From an uncultured archaeon (GTDB lineage Archaea > Aenigmatarchaeota > Aenigmatarchaeia > Aenigmatarchaeales > Aenigmatarchaeaceae): DNA of 64,000 nt. This document shows, one piece after another, positions 3,777-31,278 of the stretch; within the stretch, counting starts at the first letter, position 1, and each line of letters begins with the position of its first letter. The DNA lies in the NCBI GenBank assembly GCA_964348065.1, contig CAYGBE010000214.1, positions 2,572-66,571 of the forward strand. Reading direction: 5' to 3'. The notes beneath the pieces were generated by a model. The model made no database searches. It was not told where the DNA came from and worked only from the letters and a program-made list of their open reading frames with translations. The position numbers were made by a program, and so were the translations under genes.

Positions 3777-4184
3777 ATGAAAGGACAGGCTGCTTTTGAA
3801 TATTTACTGATTTTTTCAATGATTATAGTATTGGTATTAATTCTAGTAGCGTATTCTGGACAGCTTACAGAAAGAAACAAAGAAGAAATAAGAATATCAA
3901 ATGCTATATCTGCAGCAAGACATATCATAGATGCAGCAAACATAGTAAATACACAAGGAAAGCCTTCTCAAATAACATTAAACTCAGTTTATATTCCTGA
4001 GGGCGTTGAGTCAATAAATATCAGCGGAAAAACTCTTCTGATCAGAGTATGGATAGCTGGGGGCATAGGTGATATTCCTGTAATGTCAAAAGCAGATTTG
4101 CAGGGTTCTATATCAAGTACTCAAGGATTGAAGAGAATAAGAGTAAAGGCCGAGGATAATTATGTTAACATCACGGAAGTCTGA
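3777..4184 (+). CDS. type IV pilin-like protein (class III signal peptide)
   Basis: 135 aa. MKG|QAAFEYLLIFSMIIVLVLILV has a short basic leader, G at -1, Q at +1 and then about 20 hydrophobic residues, which is the archaeal prepilin pattern. Confidence 0.65.
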   Translation: MKGQAAFEYLLIFSMIIVLVLILVAYSGQLTERNKEEIRISNAISAARHIIDAANIVNTQGKPSQITLNSVYIPEGVESINISGKTLLIRVWIAGGIGDIPVMSKADLQGSISSTQGLKRIRVKAEDNYVNITEV

Positions 4185-17350: not shown

Positions 17351-17620
17351 GTGTGCTGGGCATAACCCATCTTCTGTGAACAAATCTTGTAAACACGTTC
17401 ATCTTTGTTTGACAGCATTCGTCTATGCGATCTACCCGCTCCTCTTTCATCACCAGAGCATGTTTGATCTTACACCTTGCCACGACTCTTTTGAACATCT
17501 TAAGCTCAATTGAATCCCAAACCTTTCAGCTTTGTTCTTACGAACGGCAAACCATTAAGGCTAAAGGTGGATGGAGTTTCCTCCGCACTGAAAGTACGGA
17601 CAGCTGTCTGCCCAGCCCAC
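17351..17620 (-). ncRNA. rnpB: RNase P RNA
   Basis: Minus strand. P1 pairs GUGGGCUGGGCA with UGCCCAGCACAC at 11 of 12 positions. P3 hairpin is CCGUAC-UUUCA-GUGCGG. The CR-I-like block is GGAGGAAACUCCAUCC and the CR-V-like block is CACAGAAGAUGGGUUAUG. The region is GC-enriched relative to its flanks. Ends are accurate to a few nt. Confidence 0.8.
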
Positions 17621-17691: not shown

Positions 17692-20600
17692 CCAGCAGAA
17701 GCAATTAAAGGGGTCTAAGCAAAAGGTATTGGGAAGTGCAAGCTGAACACATCGCCGAAGCTTTGTGCGTACACTTCACTCCCATTAAGCGGATCGTCTA
17801 TCCGCACCAGTTACCTATTTTTCCCGGCAGTTTCCAGCTTAGATGCTTTCAGCTGTTAAGTGCTATGACGTGGCTGCCCGGCTTTACCAAAAGATAACCG
17901 GTCAACTAGAGGTCACGGATGAGCGTTCCTTTCGTACTCACCCATCCTTCGAGTCAGGTAACAACACCCTCAGTAGATATAAACCGTACTGTCTTTGTCG
18001 TCTGATGTAGGAATTTAAATTTGGTTCATAAGCTACTCCATCAGCGAATGTTTCGCATTGGGACGGTTCATTCATTACCAAATAACATACGGTAACATGA
18101 TTTCATAGCTAGCCATAGCTAAAGCTAATCATGCTATCTTTTCAGGGAAAAGAATTAGTTCCCGCACCAGATCACGACGTACTGAACCCAGCTAATGTCC
18201 CCTTTTAACCAGTGAACACCTGTACCCTTGGCCGCTACTGCACGGCCAGGAGAGGGGAAGCCGACAGCGATGAAGCAATGCGCGGGGCCAATAGGAGCTC
18301 TCGCCCGCCACGACTCCATTATCCCCGGGGTAGCTTTTCTGAAGTAACCGAGGTCCATCAATAACAGCCCGGCGTATCGTTAGCCCACGCTTTCACGATT
18401 GAATTCCTTACTGTGCAGAATTCAATAAACAATCCTTTTACGCTTACACTCTACTCTCCATTTCTGACGGAGATGAGGATTACTTTGGGCACTCTTGATC
18501 TCCTGTCAAGAGTGTACCGCCCCAGCCGAGCGGTCCACCAATCGGTGTCCCCTCGAAGTCGAAGGTTAGTCATACAATTGTAAAAGGGCAGTGTTACATT
18601 GTTGTCTATCTAAAGCCCTAAAGCTTTAGCATGACGACTCCTACCTACACTATGCAATCACAACCATATAACAACGACAGGCTACCGCAGAGCTCCACGG
18701 GGTCTACTCTTCCCCCTGAGGGTCTGTGGCCTATTCACCACAAAAGCAGGTTCGCCGGACTCCAGTCTGGGACAGCGAAGGAGTCGTTAAGCCCTTCATG
18801 CAGGTCGACATTTAATCGACAAGGGATTACGCTACCTTAAGACAGTCAGAGTTACCGCCGCCGTTAACGAGGGCTTGGATCGGTTGAAACCGACTTTCAC
18901 ACACTCGCACTGGGCAGGCCTCAGCGACTATACAAAGCATTTCTGCTTAGCAGTCACCTATGTTTTTGTTAAACAGTCGCCCCTTCCTGGTCACTGCGTC
19001 CTATGCACTTCTGCATAGGCCATCCTTATACCAAAGATACGGATCTAATTTGCCGACTTCCCTAGACTGGGATAATCCGACACGCCATTGCCTTCTCAGC
19101 AAGGATACCAGTATAGGTTCTCAGTACAATCACAAACAATCCTTTCTAATTATATTTTCAAGGACTCTAGGAATTTGCCTAACTCCGCTATACAGCAGAG
19201 CTATTTGCAGCTTCAACTGATTCTCTCCTTGACGGAACTCCTCAGTTTTAACTACTTAACTTACGTAGGCATATCTCTAAAGTGTATACAATTAGACTTG
19301 TGTTGCCACACGTATGTCTATGGTACCTGAATATTAACAGGTTTCCCTTCCCATACAGCAGTTAAGAGTATGGTTAGGTTTGACTAACTCACGACCGAAA
19401 AACGTTGTCGTGAAAACCTTGCCCTTCAGGCGGAGAGGATTCTAACCTCTCTTTGTTGCTACTACCAGCAGGATTTTCATTTCTGTACGGTCCACACTTT
19501 TTTACAAAGGTGCTTCTGTCCATACAGAACGCCTTCCTACACTATTGCTTTCGCAATCTGAGGTCTCGGTTCTTAACTTACTCCAGTCCATCTTCACCGC
19601 ACCAGCCCTAGAGAGGTCCGTTGTTACACGTTGATTATGCGATGGCAACTTCTAAGCCTACGCTCCTCCTGTTTTGGAACTGACACAAGCTTCGTGAATT
19701 AGTTAAGATTAGGGACCTTAACCTCAGGCTAGGTTGTTCCCTTTTCGGATACCAGGCTTACCCTAGCACCCTCACTCCCATCTTCTACGATGTTAACAGA
19801 TTATTAGTTTGACAGGAAAACTGGGAATTTCTTCCCTTGATTCCCCAATCAGTGCTTTACCCTGTTAACTATCTCAGACGAGGCTGTGCTAAGACACATT
19901 TCGGAAGGAACCAGCTATCACCACTTTCGATTGGCTTTTCACCCCTAACCCCAATTCATCCGAGTGGTTTCTCCAACACCGGTTCAGACTTCCACGCAGC
20001 TTTCGCTACGCTTCATCTTGATTAGGGTTAGATCAAGCGGCTTCGGGTCTTGTTCTTGTGACTTCAGGCCCTTTCAGACCTAGTATCATGCTTTCGCTAC
20101 ATACTTTTGCTTTCGCTGTGGATATCTTGCTTAACAATTTATCCTTGCCACAAAAACAAACTCCCTGCCCCGTGTTCCTAAACGAACTCCATAATCCTGT
20201 AATCTTTTGTTCGTACACACTGCTTGCGCAGCTTTCCTTCACAAAAGAACCTTTCAGACCATGGATGACTATCACCAATAGGTTTCAAGATCTTTTCAAC
20301 TCCGGTGAAGAATACTTTTCAACTTTCAGTCACCTTACTTATTCGCTATCAGACTTTCGAGATATTTAGAGTTAGTCGTTGATGACAACCACCTTTCCAC
20401 TCCCCATCCAAGGAATGGTACTCTTTTCCTGAATCAACTTTCTAGTCTTCCTTTACGCGACTATCACGCTCTATGGCATGTCGTTCCAGACAACTTCAAG
20501 TCAACTAGCGAAGTTGTACCAGGCTCCACATCTTAACTGTATTTCTACAGCAATTCGGTCTGCTCTTTTCCGCTTTTACTCGCCGTTACTAACGGAATAA

Positions 20601-20831
20601 CATTCGTTTTCTTTTCCTCCACTTACTAAGATGCTTCAATTCAGTGGGTTACCAATTCTTTCGAATCACTAGCCGAAGCTAGTATGAATTCATATTAGGG
20701 AATTCTTGGTTCAAAGGCTGCTTACGCCTACCCAAGACTTATCGCAGTTTGCTGCGCCCTTCTTCGTTCTCGAAAACTGAGCTATCCACCTATTGGCTTC
20801 CTGCTCAGACCCTTACTTCTACTTCTGCTGG
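17692..20831 (-). rRNA. 23S (LSU) rRNA gene including flanking processing stem and one intron
   Basis: The minus strand carries these universal LSU blocks:
- GGUGGAUAGCUC...CUGCGAUAAGUC near 20.8 kb
- GUAACGGCGAGUAAAAGC
- GAUAGCUGGUUCC
- GACUGUUUAACAAAAACAUAGG
- CUUAAGGUAGCGUAAUCCCUUGUCG
- GACCCCGUGGAGCU
- GCUGGGUUCAGUACGUCGUGA
- sarcin-ricin loop AGUACGAAAGGAAC
- GCUGAAAGCAUCUAAGC
The outer limits are set by a long helix pairing roughly 20790-20831 with 17692-17735. Confidence 0.95.
17994..18171 (-). other. rRNA intron (about 178 nt, no ORF), bulge-helix-bulge-like junctions
   Basis: The conserved run ...GGGUUCAGUACGUCGUGA stops at about 18172 and resumes as GACAGUACGGUUUAUAUCUACUGAGGGUG at about 17993. 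The intervening sequence is AT-rich and not rRNA-like. Exon GUCGU pairs with intron ACGAC, and the bulge GAU sits at the 5' junction. Boundaries are accurate to about 2 nt. Confidence 0.7.
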
Positions 20832-26180: not shown

Positions 26181-27725
26181 TCATCTCTCTAACATAAAAA
26201 CCTTTCTGCTTGGAATTTCAGCAAATATTTTTTCTAAAAGCATTTTTTCTTCAAATTTCTTGCCAACAACTATTGGTTTTAATTCTTCCGCAAGTTTAAC
26301 AGCATCACTTAATCTAATATAATTATTAGAATGGATGGTAAATAAAATATCACCCTTTTTGACATTATCTCCCATCTTTACTTTTAAATGAATTCCCGCG
26401 CCTTTATCTCTTGGTGCTCCTGCTTCCCTTGAAATAATAACTATAGCAGAATTCTTTATCCATAATACTCTTCCATCTATATCTGATTTTACTTTAAACA
26501 TCTTATCTCCAATTTTAATGTTTTCTGGTTTTATTTCAGGATCCCCGCCCTGAGCCTCAATAATTTTTCTCATCTTTTTTTCTGCTTTTCCAGATTTTAA
26601 AACTTGTAAAGCAGCTCCATGGTCTTTGGCACCCATTTCAACAAATAAAATATCAGCAAGCATTGTTGTTTTTTTTATTAGATCTTTTGGGCCCTTTCCT
26701 TGTAGTGTTAGTAATGCTTCTCTTGCTTCTAAAGCCGGACCAATAGAATAGCCCAAAGGTTGTTCACCAAATGTTATTCCACAAGCAACATGCATTCCTA
26801 ATCTTTTTCCTAGCTCAAGAAAATCATCAGCTAATTCGCGTGCCCTTTGCATACTTGTAATTTTTGTTTCTTTTCCACTTGGTATGTCTATTACAATATA
26901 TTTAGCACCAATTGATTTTTTCTTAGACATTATAGAAGGTAATAACATTGGATCAATTCCCAAAGGATATTCAATTTTAATAAATTCATCATCAGCGGGG
27001 GCTAAATCTAAAGCTCCGCCCCAAACTAAACATGCATCAGTTTTTTTAACAACTTCTTCAATTTCATCTAATGTTAAATCTACTGGAGCCAAAACCTCCA
27101 TTCTTTCTGCAGTTCCACAAGGAGAAGTTATTGCTTTAGAAGATGTTTTTGGAATTGTAAAACCTGATGCCGCAACTATTGGAACCAAAACTAAAGATGT
27201 TTTATCTCCAGGAATTCCACCAATAGAATGTTTGTCGCATATCACTTTTTTATTAAATTTAAATCTTTTTCCAGTCTCAACCATTGCTTTTGAAAAACTT
27301 GCTGCTTCATCTATTGAAATTCCCCTTGCATATAAAGCTGTTACAAATGCTGTTAATTCTATGTCAGATAGTTTTCTATCAACAACATCTCTAACGATTT
27401 TCTTAATTTTATTATATTCTAATCTTGCACCAGCAATTTTTTGTTTTACATAAATAATAGATTCAGGAACTTTTTCCTTAGAAACAACAATATGTTCTCC
27501 GCCCTTTAAATTAAAAAAAGTAGTAACATCATTATTAGTTATAATTTCACCTTTCATTGTAAATCTTGTTGTTATATCAACTATTGCTGTTAGTCTTTTG
27601 CCTTTGCATTTAAGATTCACTCTATCCAATGCATGCAAGCCTAAAAAGTCTGCGTCTTCTTTATTTAATATTACAATGTTTTTTCCCCCGACTTCTAAGT
27701 TAATTGTTCTTGCTACTAGCTTCAT
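26181..27725 (-). CDS. deoA: AMP phosphorylase (thymidine-phosphorylase family, archaeal long form)
   Basis: 514 aa. It has the extra N-terminal domain MKLVARTINLEVGGKNIVILNKEDA typical of archaeal AMP phosphorylases, followed by the glycosyltransferase family 3 core (DKHSIGGIPGDKTS). It sits in an operon with RuBisCO. Confidence 0.8.
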   Translation of the reverse strand: MKLVARTINLEVGGKNIVILNKEDADFLGLHALDRVNLKCKGKRLTAIVDITTRFTMKGEIITNNDVTTFFNLKGGEHIVVSKEKVPESIIYVKQKIAGARLEYNKIKKIVRDVVDRKLSDIELTAFVTALYARGISIDEAASFSKAMVETGKRFKFNKKVICDKHSIGGIPGDKTSLVLVPIVAASGFTIPKTSSKAITSPCGTAERMEVLAPVDLTLDEIEEVVKKTDACLVWGGALDLAPADDEFIKIEYPLGIDPMLLPSIMSKKKSIGAKYIVIDIPSGKETKITSMQRARELADDFLELGKRLGMHVACGITFGEQPLGYSIGPALEAREALLTLQGKGPKDLIKKTTMLADILFVEMGAKDHGAALQVLKSGKAEKKMRKIIEAQGGDPEIKPENIKIGDKMFKVKSDIDGRVLWIKNSAIVIISREAGAPRDKGAGIHLKVKMGDNVKKGDILFTIHSNNYIRLSDAVKLAEELKPIVVGKKFEEKMLLEKIFAEIPSRKVFMLER

Positions 27726-27789
27726 GTATTCACTTTAGTATATTATTTAATTTTAATTATTATAGTTTTAGAAAATAAAGTTAATTGTC

Positions 27790-28185
27790 TTAGATAGTCG
27801 GACAGGTTTGTTTTTCTGTTACTTCATTGCAAACAGATTTTAAGTTAGAGCAGTCTAAGCCTGTGTTATGGTATTTATTTTGCAAATTGCAAAGACCCCC
27901 AAGATACCATTCCATTTGAGATAAACTTATATCAGCATCACTGTCACAATCATAGTTTCCCCAGTAAACACAGTTTTCAATCATAACATCTTTTAAAGAA
28001 GCGCATTTATAATTTGGTCTACCAACTTCACACTCTCCTTTAGGTATGTACGCTGGAATACTGATAAGAACCAAAAATATTATTAGTGCTATTATTGATA
28101 TCATATCCCATTTTGTTAATTTCAATTTAAATGGGAATTTCCTTGGTTTAGGTTCAGGCTTCTCTTCTTTATGTTCTTCTTCCAT
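27790..28185 (-). CDS. membrane-anchored Cys-rich protein
   Basis: About 131 aa from the ATG at 28185. The track start at 28215 is a TTG inside rbcL. An acidic and basic N-terminus and one TM helix are followed by an ectodomain with 10 Cys. Confidence 0.4.
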   Translation of the reverse strand: MEEEHKEEKPEPKPRKFPFKLKLTKWDMISIIALIIFLVLISIPAYIPKGECEVGRPNYKCASLKDVMIENCVYWGNYDCDSDADISLSQMEWYLGGLCNLQNKYHNTGLDCSNLKSVCNEVTEKQTCPTI

Positions 28186-28192
28186 ATTAACA

Positions 28193-29449
28193 CTATAACC
28201 ATTGTTGTAATGCAACTTTTAATTCTTTATGCTTCTTTGAATATTCTTTAAGAGAAATATTATTTAAAGCTGCATCAACTGCTTGTCTCATAGCTTTTGC
28301 TCCGGCTTTTGTTCCCTTTCTATGACCATGAATCCCGCCACCAGCTTGAATTATTATATCATTTCCCAAGTTTTTTACTAGATAAGGAACCAAACCGGGA
28401 TGTAATCCACCTGAGCAAACAGCAAATATTGGTTTTATATGAAGCCAATCTTCTGCAAGAAAATGACCGTGCTCCCTTATAACTCTTTTTTCGATTTCTT
28501 CTTCTGTTGTAAGAATTTCATCTTTTACTCCTTCCATTTTACCAATAATTGTTCCTATATGTAATTGATCTAAACCTATTAATCTTGAAATATCTCCAAT
28601 AACAACCATTGATATGCCATGTTTTTTATTTCTTGTAAAAGTTGCATGGCCACTTCTATGAGCATGCAAAACTAGTTTCAAATAATCATTAACATCTCTT
28701 AATGTTTGTAAACCAGCCCATCCAACAGTGATTATATCAACCATTGAATACCTTCCATTTTGTTCTTTTACAAACTCAGCTCTTGAAAGCATTTCATTGG
28801 TTTCAGCAGTTACATTTGGCATGTAAACCTTTCTCTCACCTGTTTCTCTTTCAGCTTTATTTCTCATTTTCAACGTTTCTACAACTCTTTTTTCAAATTT
28901 GTTAAATCCCAAATTAGAAAGATTCTCATCGTCTTTAACAATATCAACTCCGCCAACCCAAGCCTCATATGCAACCTTAGCATGTTCCTTTTCTTTTAAT
29001 CCTAATTTTGGTTTAATGATTGTTCCACACAAAGGTCTTTTTGGAATTTTTAATATTTTTCTTATACCTTTGATTCCAAAAAGTGGTCCTTTAAATGATT
29101 TTATAATTTTATCAGGCCAATTAATGTCTTCTAGTCTTAAGTTAACAACAGACTTCATACCAAAAATATTTCCTGCAATGCTGCTTAGAATTTGTGGCAT
29201 ATTTGCCGGTTCAAACAAATCTGAAGGATAAGCAATTTTTACGTAATTTCCTTTTATCTCAAAAACCTTTGCTCCTAATTTTTTAATTCTTGGTTTCATT
29301 GTTTTAACGGTAGTCCAAGTCCCAACACTACTTTCTCCTGCCACAATTTCTGCTGCTTTTTTAATAGAAACTCCTTTTTTAGGTTCAACTCTAAACAAAC
29401 AAATTAAATCATTTTTATTTGGCCTATATTTTAAATCAATATAACTCAT
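28193..29449 (-). CDS. rbcL: RuBisCO large subunit, form III type
   Basis: 418 aa. GGVDIVKDDENL (carbamylated Lys motif), HAHRSGHATF and GGGIHGH. There is no small-subunit gene, and the AMP phosphorylase and R15P isomerase genes are neighbours. Confidence 0.9.
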   Translation of the reverse strand: MSYIDLKYRPNKNDLICLFRVEPKKGVSIKKAAEIVAGESSVGTWTTVKTMKPRIKKLGAKVFEIKGNYVKIAYPSDLFEPANMPQILSSIAGNIFGMKSVVNLRLEDINWPDKIIKSFKGPLFGIKGIRKILKIPKRPLCGTIIKPKLGLKEKEHAKVAYEAWVGGVDIVKDDENLSNLGFNKFEKRVVETLKMRNKAERETGERKVYMPNVTAETNEMLSRAEFVKEQNGRYSMVDIITVGWAGLQTLRDVNDYLKLVLHAHRSGHATFTRNKKHGISMVVIGDISRLIGLDQLHIGTIIGKMEGVKDEILTTEEEIEKRVIREHGHFLAEDWLHIKPIFAVCSGGLHPGLVPYLVKNLGNDIIIQAGGGIHGHRKGTKAGAKAMRQAVDAALNNISLKEYSKKHKELKVALQQWL

Positions 29450-29709
29450 TTTTTAACCTTTGCCACCCTATATGCATCAAGACTAATATAGATGCTTACT
29501 ATCAAAGACCAAACAATTATCCAATAAACTCCAGCAAAAACAAATAAGCCCGCCACATATGTGTACCAAAGTGCAAATATCCAAACCATAAAATAGGATG
29601 CAATCAAATAAAAGGCTTCTTCAGTTCTCTTTTCAAGATACAAATATCCTATTCCCCAAAAAAAGAAATTTGTAATTGCCGCGAATGCTGGACTTTTTCT
29701 GGCTTTCAT
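29446..29709 (-). CDS. small membrane protein (3 TM)
   Basis: 87 aa and hydrophobic. A 4-nt ATGA-type overlap with the rbcL start implies co-translation. Confidence 0.4.
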   Translation of the reverse strand: MKARKSPAFAAITNFFFWGIGYLYLEKRTEEAFYLIASYFMVWIFALWYTYVAGLFVFAGVYWIIVWSLIVSIYISLDAYRVAKVKK

Positions 29710-29713
29710 TTTA

Positions 29714-30460
29714 TCACCCCAAATTCTCCTCTTTTATAAATATTGTTTTTATACAAAAATTATTTTCTATTAATTTACCTAAATTTATCATTCCTAAAGA
29801 CTCTGTTGAATAATGAGTAGCAGATATGTAGTTCAAGTTGTTTTCTTTAGCAAAAATATTTCCGAACATACCATCTTCCCCAGTTATATAAGTATCACAG
29901 CCTTTATCTAAAACAGATTGGATAAAGTTTATTCTATAAGCACCCCCTGTTACTATTCCTATCTTTTTGAATTTTTTATTAAATCTAAAAACTTTAGGCT
30001 TAATTTTTAATGTTTTCTTTATTCTTCTAATCAATTCATTAAAACTAAAATTTGCAAAACCATAAACCCCAGTATAATCAACATCTCCCCTTTCTTTTAG
30101 AAATCTGCCTTTAATTTTTATTCCAAGTTCTTTTGCTAAAATAAAAGCCATTCCAATGTCTTTTGCTTGATCTAAAGACTCATGAACTACGTACAAATTA
30201 ATTTTATTTTTTCTTAAAAGAGAAAGTTTTTTCTTATAATAAGGCATCCACTTCCAAGCAGCATGATGAGTTATTAAAAAATCTATATTATTTTTTATTG
30301 CCTTTTCTATAGATTCTTTAGAAACATTTACAGCTATACCAATTTTTTTAATATTGTTTTTTCCTCTAATTATTAGACCATTAGATTCTTTCCATTTTCT
30401 TTTAAACTTTTTTATCTTCAAAGTCTTATCAAGATATTTTACCAATTCGTTTCTCTTCAT
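29714..30460 (-). CDS. NIF3-family dinuclear-metal protein
   Basis: 248 aa. FLITHHA and the C-terminal SATHYSTE motifs are typical of NIF3/YbgI. Confidence 0.6.
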   Translation of the reverse strand: MKRNELVKYLDKTLKIKKFKRKWKESNGLIIRGKNNIKKIGIAVNVSKESIEKAIKNNIDFLITHHAAWKWMPYYKKKLSLLRKNKINLYVVHESLDQAKDIGMAFILAKELGIKIKGRFLKERGDVDYTGVYGFANFSFNELIRRIKKTLKIKPKVFRFNKKFKKIGIVTGGAYRINFIQSVLDKGCDTYITGEDGMFGNIFAKENNLNYISATHYSTESLGMINLGKLIENNFCIKTIFIKEENLG

Positions 30461-31278
30461 TTTAACATCTTCTTAACATTCCCAGGAGTTAGTATTCCTT
30501 TTTCTGTCACAACTCTTTTAACATATTTCCATGGAGTTATATCAAAAGCAGGATTCTTAACTTCTAATGTTTTCAAATGTTCTACATAAATCTCATGAGG
30601 ATCTCTTTGCTCAATAATCAATTTTTTTCTTTTGTCTATTTTTAGAGTATTACCAACTACATAAAATGGTTTTTTATGTTCCTTGGCAACCACAGCCATT
30701 GTATATGTTCCGATCTTATTGACAATACCCTCTTTTCTAATTGCATCTGAACCAACTATAACAATATCTACATCTTTAATAAAGAATTCAGTGGCATCAT
30801 CAATTATTAAAATAACATGAATGCCTAACTTACTTAATTCTTTTGCTGTTTTTATTCCTTGTTCTTTGGGTCTGGTTTCAGTTGCATAAACAGTAATTTT
30901 CTTACCTTCTTTCCAAGCTTGTTTTATAATAGCACAAGCTTCTCCAGAATGGCAATGAGTCATTATTACATAATTATTCTTTATTAATCTACTTCCTCTT
31001 TTTGAAATTTCTTTAGTTGCTTGATTTAATTTTCTTAACAATTTGTTTATTGTTTTTATTTTTTTCTCTTTTTTAATAATCTCTAAACAATTATGCAAAA
31101 CAACTGCTGTTGGTCTTGCTTTTTCAATTTTTTTTGCAGCTTGATTAAACTCCTTCCCAAAACCTTTTTCTTTTGCAAGCTTTCTTAAGAACTTTAAGCT
31201 ATGAATCGCAATCTCTTTAGCTCCTTGAATTTCTAGACTCTTAAGCTTCTTTAAAAGGTCTTTTAGGCTTTCATGCAT
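30457..31278 (-). CDS. e2b2: ribose-1,5-bisphosphate isomerase (eIF-2B alpha/beta/delta-like family)
   Basis: 273 aa. eIF-2B-like fold motifs (IMTHCHSG, VYATETRP, VGSDAI, NKIGTY). First gene of the RuBisCO operon. Confidence 0.65.
   Translation of the reverse strand: MHESLKDLLKKLKSLEIQGAKEIAIHSLKFLRKLAKEKGFGKEFNQAAKKIEKARPTAVVLHNCLEIIKKEKKIKTINKLLRKLNQATKEISKRGSRLIKNNYVIMTHCHSGEACAIIKQAWKEGKKITVYATETRPKEQGIKTAKELSKLGIHVILIIDDATEFFIKDVDIVIVGSDAIRKEGIVNKIGTYTMAVVAKEHKKPFYVVGNTLKIDKRKKLIIEQRDPHEIYVEHLKTLEVKNPAFDITPWKYVKRVVTEKGILTPGNVKKMLK

Follow-up and report, generated by a model that had tools for sequence, protein, structure and literature searches.

A probable splicing-endonuclease-type intron with a guide-like RNA core in the helix 93 loop of archaeal 23S rRNA genes

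The archaeal 23S (large subunit, LSU) ribosomal RNA (rRNA) gene described here is located on a 64,000-nucleotide (nt) stretch of DNA from an uncultured archaeon of the Aenigmatarchaeota (GenBank assembly GCA_964348065.1, contig CAYGBE010000214.1, positions 2,572 to 66,571), to which we refer as the window. Between the bases that correspond to G2597 and A2598 of Escherichia coli, in the loop of helix 93, the conserved sequence of this gene is interrupted by 178 nt that very likely represent an archaeal intron of the splicing-endonuclease type, without an open reading frame (ORF) and with a guide-like core. The pairing at its ends is seen in the sequence and in comparison with relatives; its excision and ligation we infer from the known course of archaeal splicing. 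The conserved core is probably a kink-turn RNA of the C/D-box guide type, and our tentative proposal is that the intron has been domesticated as the vehicle of a methylation guide of the C/D-box type directed at the rRNA of its own host. The putative intron is not inert filler: it belongs to a family in which a structured core is kept next to A2602 and in which an endonuclease gene has been lost or was never present.

The insertion in helix 93 and its splice motif

The gene matches the archaeal LSU model of Rfam from end to end (model positions 1-2987; Table 1). When its 3' part was aligned to this model, all columns had a high posterior probability save for one unaligned stretch of 179 bases, which consists of the 178 inserted bases plus one model position and falls in the loop of GUACGUC-GUG...GAC-A-GUAC, that is helix 93 of domain V. 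The exon flanks read ...GGGUUCAGUACGUCGUGA, ending at 18172, and GACAGUACGGUUUAUAUCUACUGAGGGUG, starting at 17993; on E. coli K-12 rrlH, GUCGUGAGACAG occupies positions 2592-2603, which places the insert between G2597 and A2598. The G+C content of the insert is 38%, against 46% in the exons, and its predicted fold beats that of 200 out of 200 shuffled sequences (z = -4.4). No ORF of more than 55 amino acids was found within or overlapping the insert; the listed ORF of 68 amino acids (18155-18361) falls nearly entirely in exon 1. In a five-way alignment of the window, E. coli and three relatives, no other insertion in the 23S gene of the window exceeds 58 nt.

In the minimum free energy (MFE) fold of the junctions, the exon sequence GUCG pairs with CGAC of the intron to form a central helix H of 4 base pairs (bp), and a 3-nt bulge, U-G-A, separates this helix from a 7-bp stem h' that is formed by the intron itself, UCUGGUG with CAUCAGA. 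The loop at the 3' side can be closed only by a 4-bp GUAC/GUAC helix (18179-18182 with 17986-17989). The predicted junctions are thus of the relaxed bulge-helix-bulge type, in the HBh' form. In archaeal pre-transfer RNA (tRNA) splicing, each cut in a bulge-helix-bulge falls two bases past a strand of the 4-bp helix. Applied to the fold, this rule gives cuts at G18173/A18172 and A17995/A17994 and the joined sequence GUCGUG+AGACAG, which is canonical and has its GNRA loop restored. An ambiguity of one base is settled by a few relatives (loci collected for comparison carry L numbers): in L169 the intron starts with U and not with A, and in L141, L163 and L167 the exon ends in ...GUCGUA. The cut is placed after 2597 because only that position gives GNRA loops (GUGA, GUAA) in these four loci. 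The relaxed HBh' motif is accepted for archaeal introns and requires an endonuclease of broad specificity; for the splicing endonucleases of DPANN archaea, an insert in the protein has been linked to a broad substrate range that includes relaxed substrates (PMC5829648).

A first-pass annotation of the window, made from the letters alone, had already described a break of 178 nt in the conserved 23S run. The flanks are exactly as it quoted them, and the covariance-model alignment that it suggested leaves precisely these bases unaligned in the helix 93 loop. Its size estimate was correct, its boundaries (17994-18171) are one base off and are here moved by one base in the 5' direction, to 18172-17995, and the E. 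coli site that it gave, A2598/G2599, becomes G2597/A2598 in the rrlH numbering. The AT-rich character of the insert, the hairpins CAUGAUU/AAUCAUG and GCGAA-ACA-UUCGC, the missing homing-endonuclease ORF and the position as sole large insertion of the gene were all found as described. With respect to the splice motif, folding of the junctions, also suggested there, bore out a relaxed bulge-helix-bulge as well as the restoration of the canonical domain V sequence upon joining, but in another register: the helix has 4 bp instead of 5, the bulge is UGA instead of GAU, and the 3' site lies in a loop of 7 nt. The earlier 5-bp helix with a GAU bulge was rejected, as the symmetric cut rule would then add an extra A; it is also excluded by L169.

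The insert is one member of a larger group of sequences. Contigs with a neighbouring CYTH gene, a scan of GTDB genomes and a scan of metagenomes together yielded 45 distinct introns of 175-480 nt, all at the shared site 2597, all in DPANN archaea and all ending in CGRY-NN ahead of AGACAG. The contigs with the CYTH gene (L003 and L004) carry the same intron with many substitutions, flanked by about 90 nt of identical exon on either side; in a comparison with L003, identity amounts to 86% in the intron and to 98.6% in the downstream exon. The GTDB scan, carried out with an exon 20-mer, mostly matched Elusimicrobia that have no insert, and all six archaeal matches (labelled Aenigmatarchaeota, Nanoarchaeota and uncultured archaeon) have an insert of 236-396 nt at the same place. 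The metagenome scan made use of a shared-core pattern requiring ACCGYCCC and AGTAGCTNATGARCC and returned 56 loci, of which eight (L127, L129, L135, L138, L145, L151, L161 and L164) were discarded as chance matches in unrelated sequence, while in a ninth that was set aside, L157, the core stands free and is not part of a 23S gene. The identity of the host 23S sequences to that of the window ranges from 95% down to about 75%. No endonuclease-sized ORF was found in any of the 45 family introns. A scan of viral_contigs for the junction gave chance matches only, and contigs with a neighbouring flavin-reductase gene break at the rRNA gene. The same exon 20-mer is also present in L026, a bacterial metagenome-assembled genome (Candidatus Aphodoplasma), where an unrelated insertion follows right after GUCGUG (after position 1241; CGCUUUUUUAUGAAAAAGACC...) and the exon does not resume within 3 kb.

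For a test of covariation, 37 distinct termini could be drawn from the 45 introns. In helix H only G-U changes on the intron side occur, and six of the seven pairs of h' have changed on both sides. Overall, 95.7% of the cells are paired, as compared to 15-43% when the partners are slid, and none of 500 shuffles reaches the observed covariation. In L177, a locus with a related 23S gene, helix 93 is uninterrupted, so the insert is optional. The intron that the first-pass annotation had read into the break is hence supported by 45 introns at one site, by a helix H that is always paired, by a covarying h' and by missing group I features, and the comparison of presence and absence among relatives that it recommended shows the intron in the relatives' sequences and an unbroken helix 93 in L177.

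Table 1 Features of the 23S rRNA gene and its putative intron in the window
Feature	Position	Strand	Basis or remark
Host archaeal 23S (LSU) rRNA gene	17710-20813	-	Rfam RF02540, 2357 bits
Putative intron, 178 nt	17995-18172	-	Between G2597 (18173) and A2598 (17994), GUGA loop of helix 93; covariance model, E. coli numbering, L169 and L141/L163/L167
Exon strand GUCG, central helix H	18175-18178	-	MFE fold; paired in 37/37 distinct termini
Intron strand CGAC, central helix H	17997-18000	-	Variants CGAU and CGGC retain pairing via G-U
5' bulge U-G/A, predicted 5' splice site between 18173 and 18172	18172-18174	-	Bulge-helix-bulge cut rule; agrees with L169
5' strand UCUGGUG, intron stem h'/P1	18165-18171	-	Continues in GGGAA 18159-18163; six of seven pairs with double-sided changes
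3' strand CAUCAGA, intron stem h'/P1	18001-18007	-	Continues in UUCCU 18009-18013
Relaxed 3' bulge/loop AA/AGACA, predicted 3' splice site between 17995 and 17994	17990-17996	-	Sequence logic
Variable hairpin Pa, UCUUUUC-CCU-GAAAAGA	18137-18153	-	Longer relatives carry extra sequence around here
Conserved hairpin Pb, CAUGAUU...UUAGC-loop-GCUAG...AAUCAUG	18096-18133	-	RNAalifold consensus, some compensatory pairs; outer stem changes in distant relatives too
Kink-turn / C/D-box-like module	18020-18082	-	Covariance model R1 match 18017-18085, 86.5 bits
Putative guide 1, AACCGUCCCAAU	18057-18068	-	ACCGUCCCA is a 9-bp complement of P-loop UGGGGCGGU, E. coli 2249-2257, window 18516-18524
Putative guide 2, AUGGAGUAGCUU	18030-18041	-	Directly upstream of D-like AUGA (18026-18029); pairs with AGCUACCCC, E. 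coli 2435-2443, window 18327-18335, one mismatch

The conserved core and its predicted rRNA targets

Two blocks are shared by the family, hairpin Pb and a module of 63 nt (Table 1). The module consists, in this order, of a stem strand UUUGGU, a bulge AAU, a C-like box AUGAAUG, guide 1 of 12 nt, a hairpin Pd, guide 2 of 12 nt, a D-like box AUGA and the closing strand ACCAAA, with a spacing of 7-12-15-12-4 nt and 2 nt between the hairpin and guide 2. A covariance model of this module, R1, recognizes one module per locus and no further copies in 430 kb of archaeal loci. Among 46 sequences, the inner pair of the closing stem (GGY/RCC) is U-A 26 times and C-G 20 times and is nowhere unpaired. It must have switched more than once, because close relatives such as L067 and L148 differ there. 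The stem is followed by a 3-nt bulge, R-A-U, and then by G13 and A14 facing G45 and A46, which are invariant in the 46 sequences; such a combination of a predicted stem, a 3-nt bulge and tandem G-A/G-A pairs is the sequence signature of a kink-turn. Between position 6 of box C and position 1 of box D, U-A takes the place of the canonical G-C pair, a compensatory replacement that is likewise present in both motifs of the free-standing L157 copy. The layout of C-like box, 12 nt, hairpin plus 2 nt, 12 nt and D-like box matches that of archaeal C/D box small RNAs (sRNAs). Three other structures were considered for the core and rejected. The pairing of GGU with ACC of GAACCG that RNAalifold produces is broken in 20 of the 46 sequences, while the alternative covaries perfectly; a hammerhead, suggested by CUGAUGA in some copies, was dropped as the position equivalent to its invariant G varies between U, G and A; and a second kink-turn in hairpin Pb has no consistent G-A pairs in any register.

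The two putative guides point to the peptidyl-transferase region. Guide 1 (ACCGYCCCA) would have G2251 at the methylation position, and guided methylation of G2251 has been predicted in three archaea (PMC4644070). For guide 2, the fifth-base rule leads to U2438, the U of AGCUAC in helix 74. The 9-nt core of guide 2, GGAGUAGCU, which ends one base before the box, is the same in two C/D guides listed by Dennis et al. (PMC4644070, Additional file 1), namely NeqsR14 (AAGGAGUAGCUG-CAGA) and MmasR106 (ACGGAGUAGCUU-CUGA). NeqsR14 was predicted to target U2712 of 23S rRNA in the alignment numbering of that paper, in which N14 is marked at this block (PMC4644070); by our mapping, U2712 is predicted to be U2438 of E. 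coli. Guide and target may also have changed together: in L102/L111 the guide is GGUGUAACU and the 23S rRNA of the same organism reads AGUUACCCC, so that the target change C2437U is matched by a G-to-A change in the guide, and the sole other change in the guide is at a position that was already mismatched. Sequences that were collected without bias towards the core comprise six GTDB loci (about five lineages, L102 and L111 being near-identical), L003, L004 and the window. In this set, ACCGYCCC is present throughout and GAGUAGCU in all but one lineage.

Copies of the core are also found at other places. In L157 (3899-3966, plus strand) the module stands free, 13 nt upstream of a gene for tRNA-Leu(CAG) at 3980-4068. 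Instead of the hairpin, this copy has a D'-like AUGA and a C'-like GUGAUUU, with spacers of 12 and 12 nt, and its fifth base upstream of D' pairs with G2251 (N+5). Internal boxes that contain GA occur only in this copy, which looks like a complete C/D-type sRNA that would be co-transcribed with the tRNA. In L177 (minus strand; locus 1-242 and 310-933), hairpin Pb and the kink-turn module are inserted together in the tip of a helix near the 3' end of the 23S gene (ACCGGUUAUC...GGUAAUGCCGG), and no bulge-helix-bulge was found at this second site. The same 23S gene has a LAGLIDADG_3 gene in an intron at GGGUU/.../UCAG (about E. coli 2585), some 12 nt upstream of the 2597 site.

Several observations weigh against an excised intron that carries a guide. 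With respect to the splice motif, the strict hBHBh' arrangement with a second 3-nt bulge and an outer helix was not found, the 3' site being in a 7-nt loop, and past the AA/A at this site only a single base pair, G17993-C18179, is possible. An Rfam search with the insert matched no family up to E <= 5. Instead of RUGAUGA and CUGA, the boxes read AUGAAUG and AUGA, and a covarying Watson-Crick hairpin takes the place of the C'/D' kink-loop in the intron copies. Guide 2 has an A-C mismatch at 2441 with the 23S rRNA of its own host, in the window as in most hosts, and for MmasR106, with the same mismatch, Dennis et al. made no prediction (PMC4644070). A search of the collected rRNA sequences for a perfect target of guide 2, AGCUACUCC, gave no hit and yielded a one-mismatch site only. 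About ten duplexes of at least 9 bp are expected by chance between the intron of 178 nt and the 23S rRNA of 2.9 kb in this window, for which reason complementarity to 23S rRNA was rejected as sole evidence. The covariation of guide and target in L102/L111 represents one evolutionary event, and since the metagenome set was fetched with parts of both guides, conservation of the guides in that set is partly by construction. Finally, no gene for EndA, RtcB, L7Ae, fibrillarin or Nop5 was detected in the 64-kb window, and a motif scan of about 0.5 Mb of collected loci, which did not include EndA, revealed no fibrillarin, Nop5, L7Ae or credible RtcB; the only matches to the RtcB motif HSGSR are in L129 and L138, both judged to be chance matches as loci. 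A different use of the complementarity, pairing of the intron with the adjacent exon (AUGAACCGU with ACGGUUUAU, 9 bp), was discarded, as it is uncompensated in hosts with ACGGUCUCU.

Competing explanations of the insert

The insert may be an ordinary remnant intron, in which the core serves merely as a folding scaffold or protein-binding site that presents the splice sites and in which the matches to rRNA are coincidental. Remnant introns without an ORF are known (PMC4496867), matches of 9 bp to 23S rRNA are frequent by chance, the boxes are non-canonical and the C'/D' motif is absent from the intron copies. Such a coincidence leaves unexplained that two published C/D guides are identical to the putative guide in both sequence and register, that one copy stands free next to a tRNA gene, that guide and target show a compensatory change, and that the core recurs at a second rRNA site. 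We therefore regard it as a rather unlikely explanation.

An expansion segment, in which the 178 nt are kept in mature 23S rRNA as an extension of helix 93 with a kink-turn that binds extra ribosomal L7Ae, is a further alternative. rRNA commonly contains kink-turns and L7Ae belongs to the ribosomal proteins, the spread in length from 175 to 480 nt is as in expansion segments, and in L177 the core sits at the tip of a different 23S helix where no bulge-helix-bulge was found. The same locus also provides an argument for the contrary, as its helix 93 is uninterrupted, and a free-standing core copy exists outside rRNA. Furthermore, the exact GNRA loop is restored by the cut rule in every variant, and the intron CGAC always complements the exon GUCG, changing only to wobble-compatible bases. 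This complementarity competes with the native top of helix 93 and would be pointless if the native GUC/GAC stem persisted, which makes an expansion segment improbable. We know of no expansion segments in the peptidyl-transferase core beside A2602.

Removal of the insert might also proceed without religation, which would leave a 23S rRNA split into pieces of about 2.64 kb and 0.28 kb. Fragmented 23S rRNAs are known in several lineages, and a cleavage motif is uninformative on ligation. As joining restores a perfect GNRA hairpin loop, the joined product seems to be under selection, and the ends generated from a bulge-helix-bulge are a substrate for RtcB, which has been described as the ligase that follows the splicing endonuclease in archaea (PMC4496867). 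A split 23S rRNA is thus a highly improbable outcome.

A group I intron in degenerate or miniature form would be related to the IA3 introns of DPANN archaea at LSU/2593, some of which are ORF-less and only 306-323 nt long, and bulge-helix-bulge introns have been proposed to descend from group I introns (PMC6125680). The likelihood that the insert is of this kind is negligible, as the splice-site bases, the lack of P7 and the lack of an Rfam match speak against it. Of the 45 introns, 42 follow an exon that ends in G, 3 one that ends in A and none one that ends in U; 25 introns themselves end in A, 15 in U and 5 in G, with no fixed terminal G; the P7 pair GAGACU/AGUCC occurs in 0/45; and RF00028 (Intron_gpI) has no match in the insert at E <= 5, though it matches a different insert in L102. 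Site 2593 itself, the I-CreI site, was rejected as insertion point because the 3' exon cannot begin with CGUGAGACAG. The RF00028 match in L102 (5418-5571, plus strand) is sub-threshold, with 39.7 bits, and lies inside a 696-nt insert elsewhere in the 23S gene.

Context, relation to known systems and implications

Besides the 2597 site, a second insertion site was observed 12 nt upstream, at GCUGGG/UUCAG (about E. coli 2583-2585), in L132, L133, L165, L167, L173, L175 and L179. Introns at this site end in ...CCAGCAA, and the insert in L167 is only 43 nt long. Two introns can thus sit 12 nt apart in the peptidyl-transferase loop. Several smaller inserts are also present in L177, and several large ones in L067 and L101, whose 23S genes extend over 4.4 and 5.3 kb. 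The 23S genes of DPANN archaea are heavily interrupted. Also in the peptidyl-transferase loop, at window positions 18317-18318 (minus strand), the sequence is GGGGAUAAUGG rather than the usual GGGGAUAACAG or AACUG, so that E. coli positions 2452 and 2453 are occupied by U and G; L067, L101, L102 and several metagenome relatives share this variant, and L003 and L004 have AACAG. The change C2452U has been associated with drug resistance in haloarchaea.

The 23S gene is followed on its strand, after 90 nt, by an archaeal RNase P RNA gene (17351-17620, minus strand; Rfam RF00373, 96.8 bits), and the order 23S-RNase P is also found in L067 and L101. No 16S or 5S gene is present in the 64-kb window, so the rRNA genes are unlinked. 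Genes for archaeal salvage of adenosine monophosphate (AMP) lie within about 5 kb on the minus strand (26181-31278) and encode an AMP-phosphorylase-like protein (26181-27725), a form III-like RuBisCO (28193-29449) and an IF-2B-family isomerase (30457-31278). Elsewhere in the window there are genes for glycogen synthase, a GH57 enzyme, ADP-dependent kinases and type IV pili. We take this gene set, including that for AMP salvage, to be typical of DPANN archaea.

Introns of the splicing-endonuclease type in rRNA, including ORF-less ones, are well known, as is a C/D sRNA within a tRNA-Trp intron (PMC7994747). The bulge-helix-bulge introns of crenarchaeal 23S and 16S rRNA share with the present family a conserved, central rRNA site and a pairing of exon and intron that competes with a mature helix; short and ORF-less forms exist, and they are excised by EndA and ligated by RtcB (PMC4496867). 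They differ in that the hosts of the family described here are mesophile-like DPANN archaea of about 30% G+C, that the 3' bulge is relaxed, and that the interior is a conserved structured RNA instead of a decaying endonuclease gene. Crenarchaeal examples include Desulfurococcus, Staphylothermus, Pyrobaculum, Aeropyrum and Thermoproteales. A parallel in the arrangement of an intron, a bulge-helix-bulge and a kink-turn guide RNA against the transcript of its own host is the pre-tRNA-Trp intron of Euryarchaeota such as Pyrococcus (sR50) and Haloferax, which is a C/D box sRNA (PMC7994747). Its host is a tRNA, its boxes are canonical and both of its guides have been shown to work, whereas the 2597 intron is hosted by 23S rRNA and has variant boxes, a hairpin for C'/D' and putative guides.

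NeqsR14 of Nanoarchaeum equitans and MmasR106 of Methanococcus maripaludis have the same guide core and register as guide 2, with U2438 as predicted target (PMC4644070), but they are independent genes with D boxes CUGA or CAGA and a different other guide. The N. equitans 23S rRNA matches the guide perfectly, that of the window with one mismatch. C boxes of N. equitans such as AUGAAGA share the A at position 5 with AUGAAUG of the intron, and a D box CAGA occurs (PMC4644070). A working guide in the intron would also suggest that C/D boxes in DPANN archaea vary more than is allowed for by the consensus on which sRNA finders rely, so that guides of this kind may be under-detected. The IA3 group I introns at LSU/2593 (Nawrocki, Jones and Eddy 2018; PMC6125680) resemble the 2597 introns in having DPANN hosts and a position in the same helix, four bases upstream, and in that some are short and ORF-less; their splicing chemistry is different, and their defining features are all missing from the 2597 intron. 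In eukaryotes, intron-encoded small nucleolar RNAs (snoRNAs) are guides that are released from an intron, with a supply that is tied to transcription of the host gene (PMC7994747). Searches of the open-access literature gave no account of this DPANN family or of any intron at 23S position 2597, nor of an archaeal rRNA intron that hosts a guide RNA.

The most likely course of events starts with the precursor, in which the intron CGAC would capture the exon GUCG from its mature partners, as structure and covariation indicate. EndA would cut both sites and RtcB would join the exons by the known pathway (PMC4496867), restoring the GUGA loop next to A2602; RtcB would probably also circularise the intron. 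After joining, helix 93 would refold with its GUGA loop. The covarying stem, the 3-nt bulge and the invariant G-A/G-A pairs of the core would bind L7Ae, and probably also Nop5 and fibrillarin. The core would then act on the same precursor or on others, either by methylating U2438 and perhaps G2251, or by just chaperoning these strands; both predicted targets adjoin the intron in the peptidyl-transferase centre. Spread between lineages may, more speculatively, have occurred by co-conversion through nearby introns that bear an endonuclease, such as the one with the LAGLIDADG_3 gene in L177. The 2593 site also hosts endonuclease genes (PMC6125680), and co-conversion of this kind has been described for Pyrobaculum (PMC4496867).

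For practical purposes, gene models, phylogenies and probes based on DPANN 23S rRNA must remove the insert, which is sited in one of the most conserved stretches of the gene. Guide cargo, if the intron indeed carries it, would account for the persistence of an ORF-less intron at a single site in DPANN lineages, and the family would then be the counterpart in archaea of the snoRNAs in eukaryotic introns. With a working guide in the core, archaea with small genomes would make an rRNA modification guide from the rRNA precursor itself, which would tie the supply of the guide to ribosome synthesis and would provide a selective reason for retention of the intron.

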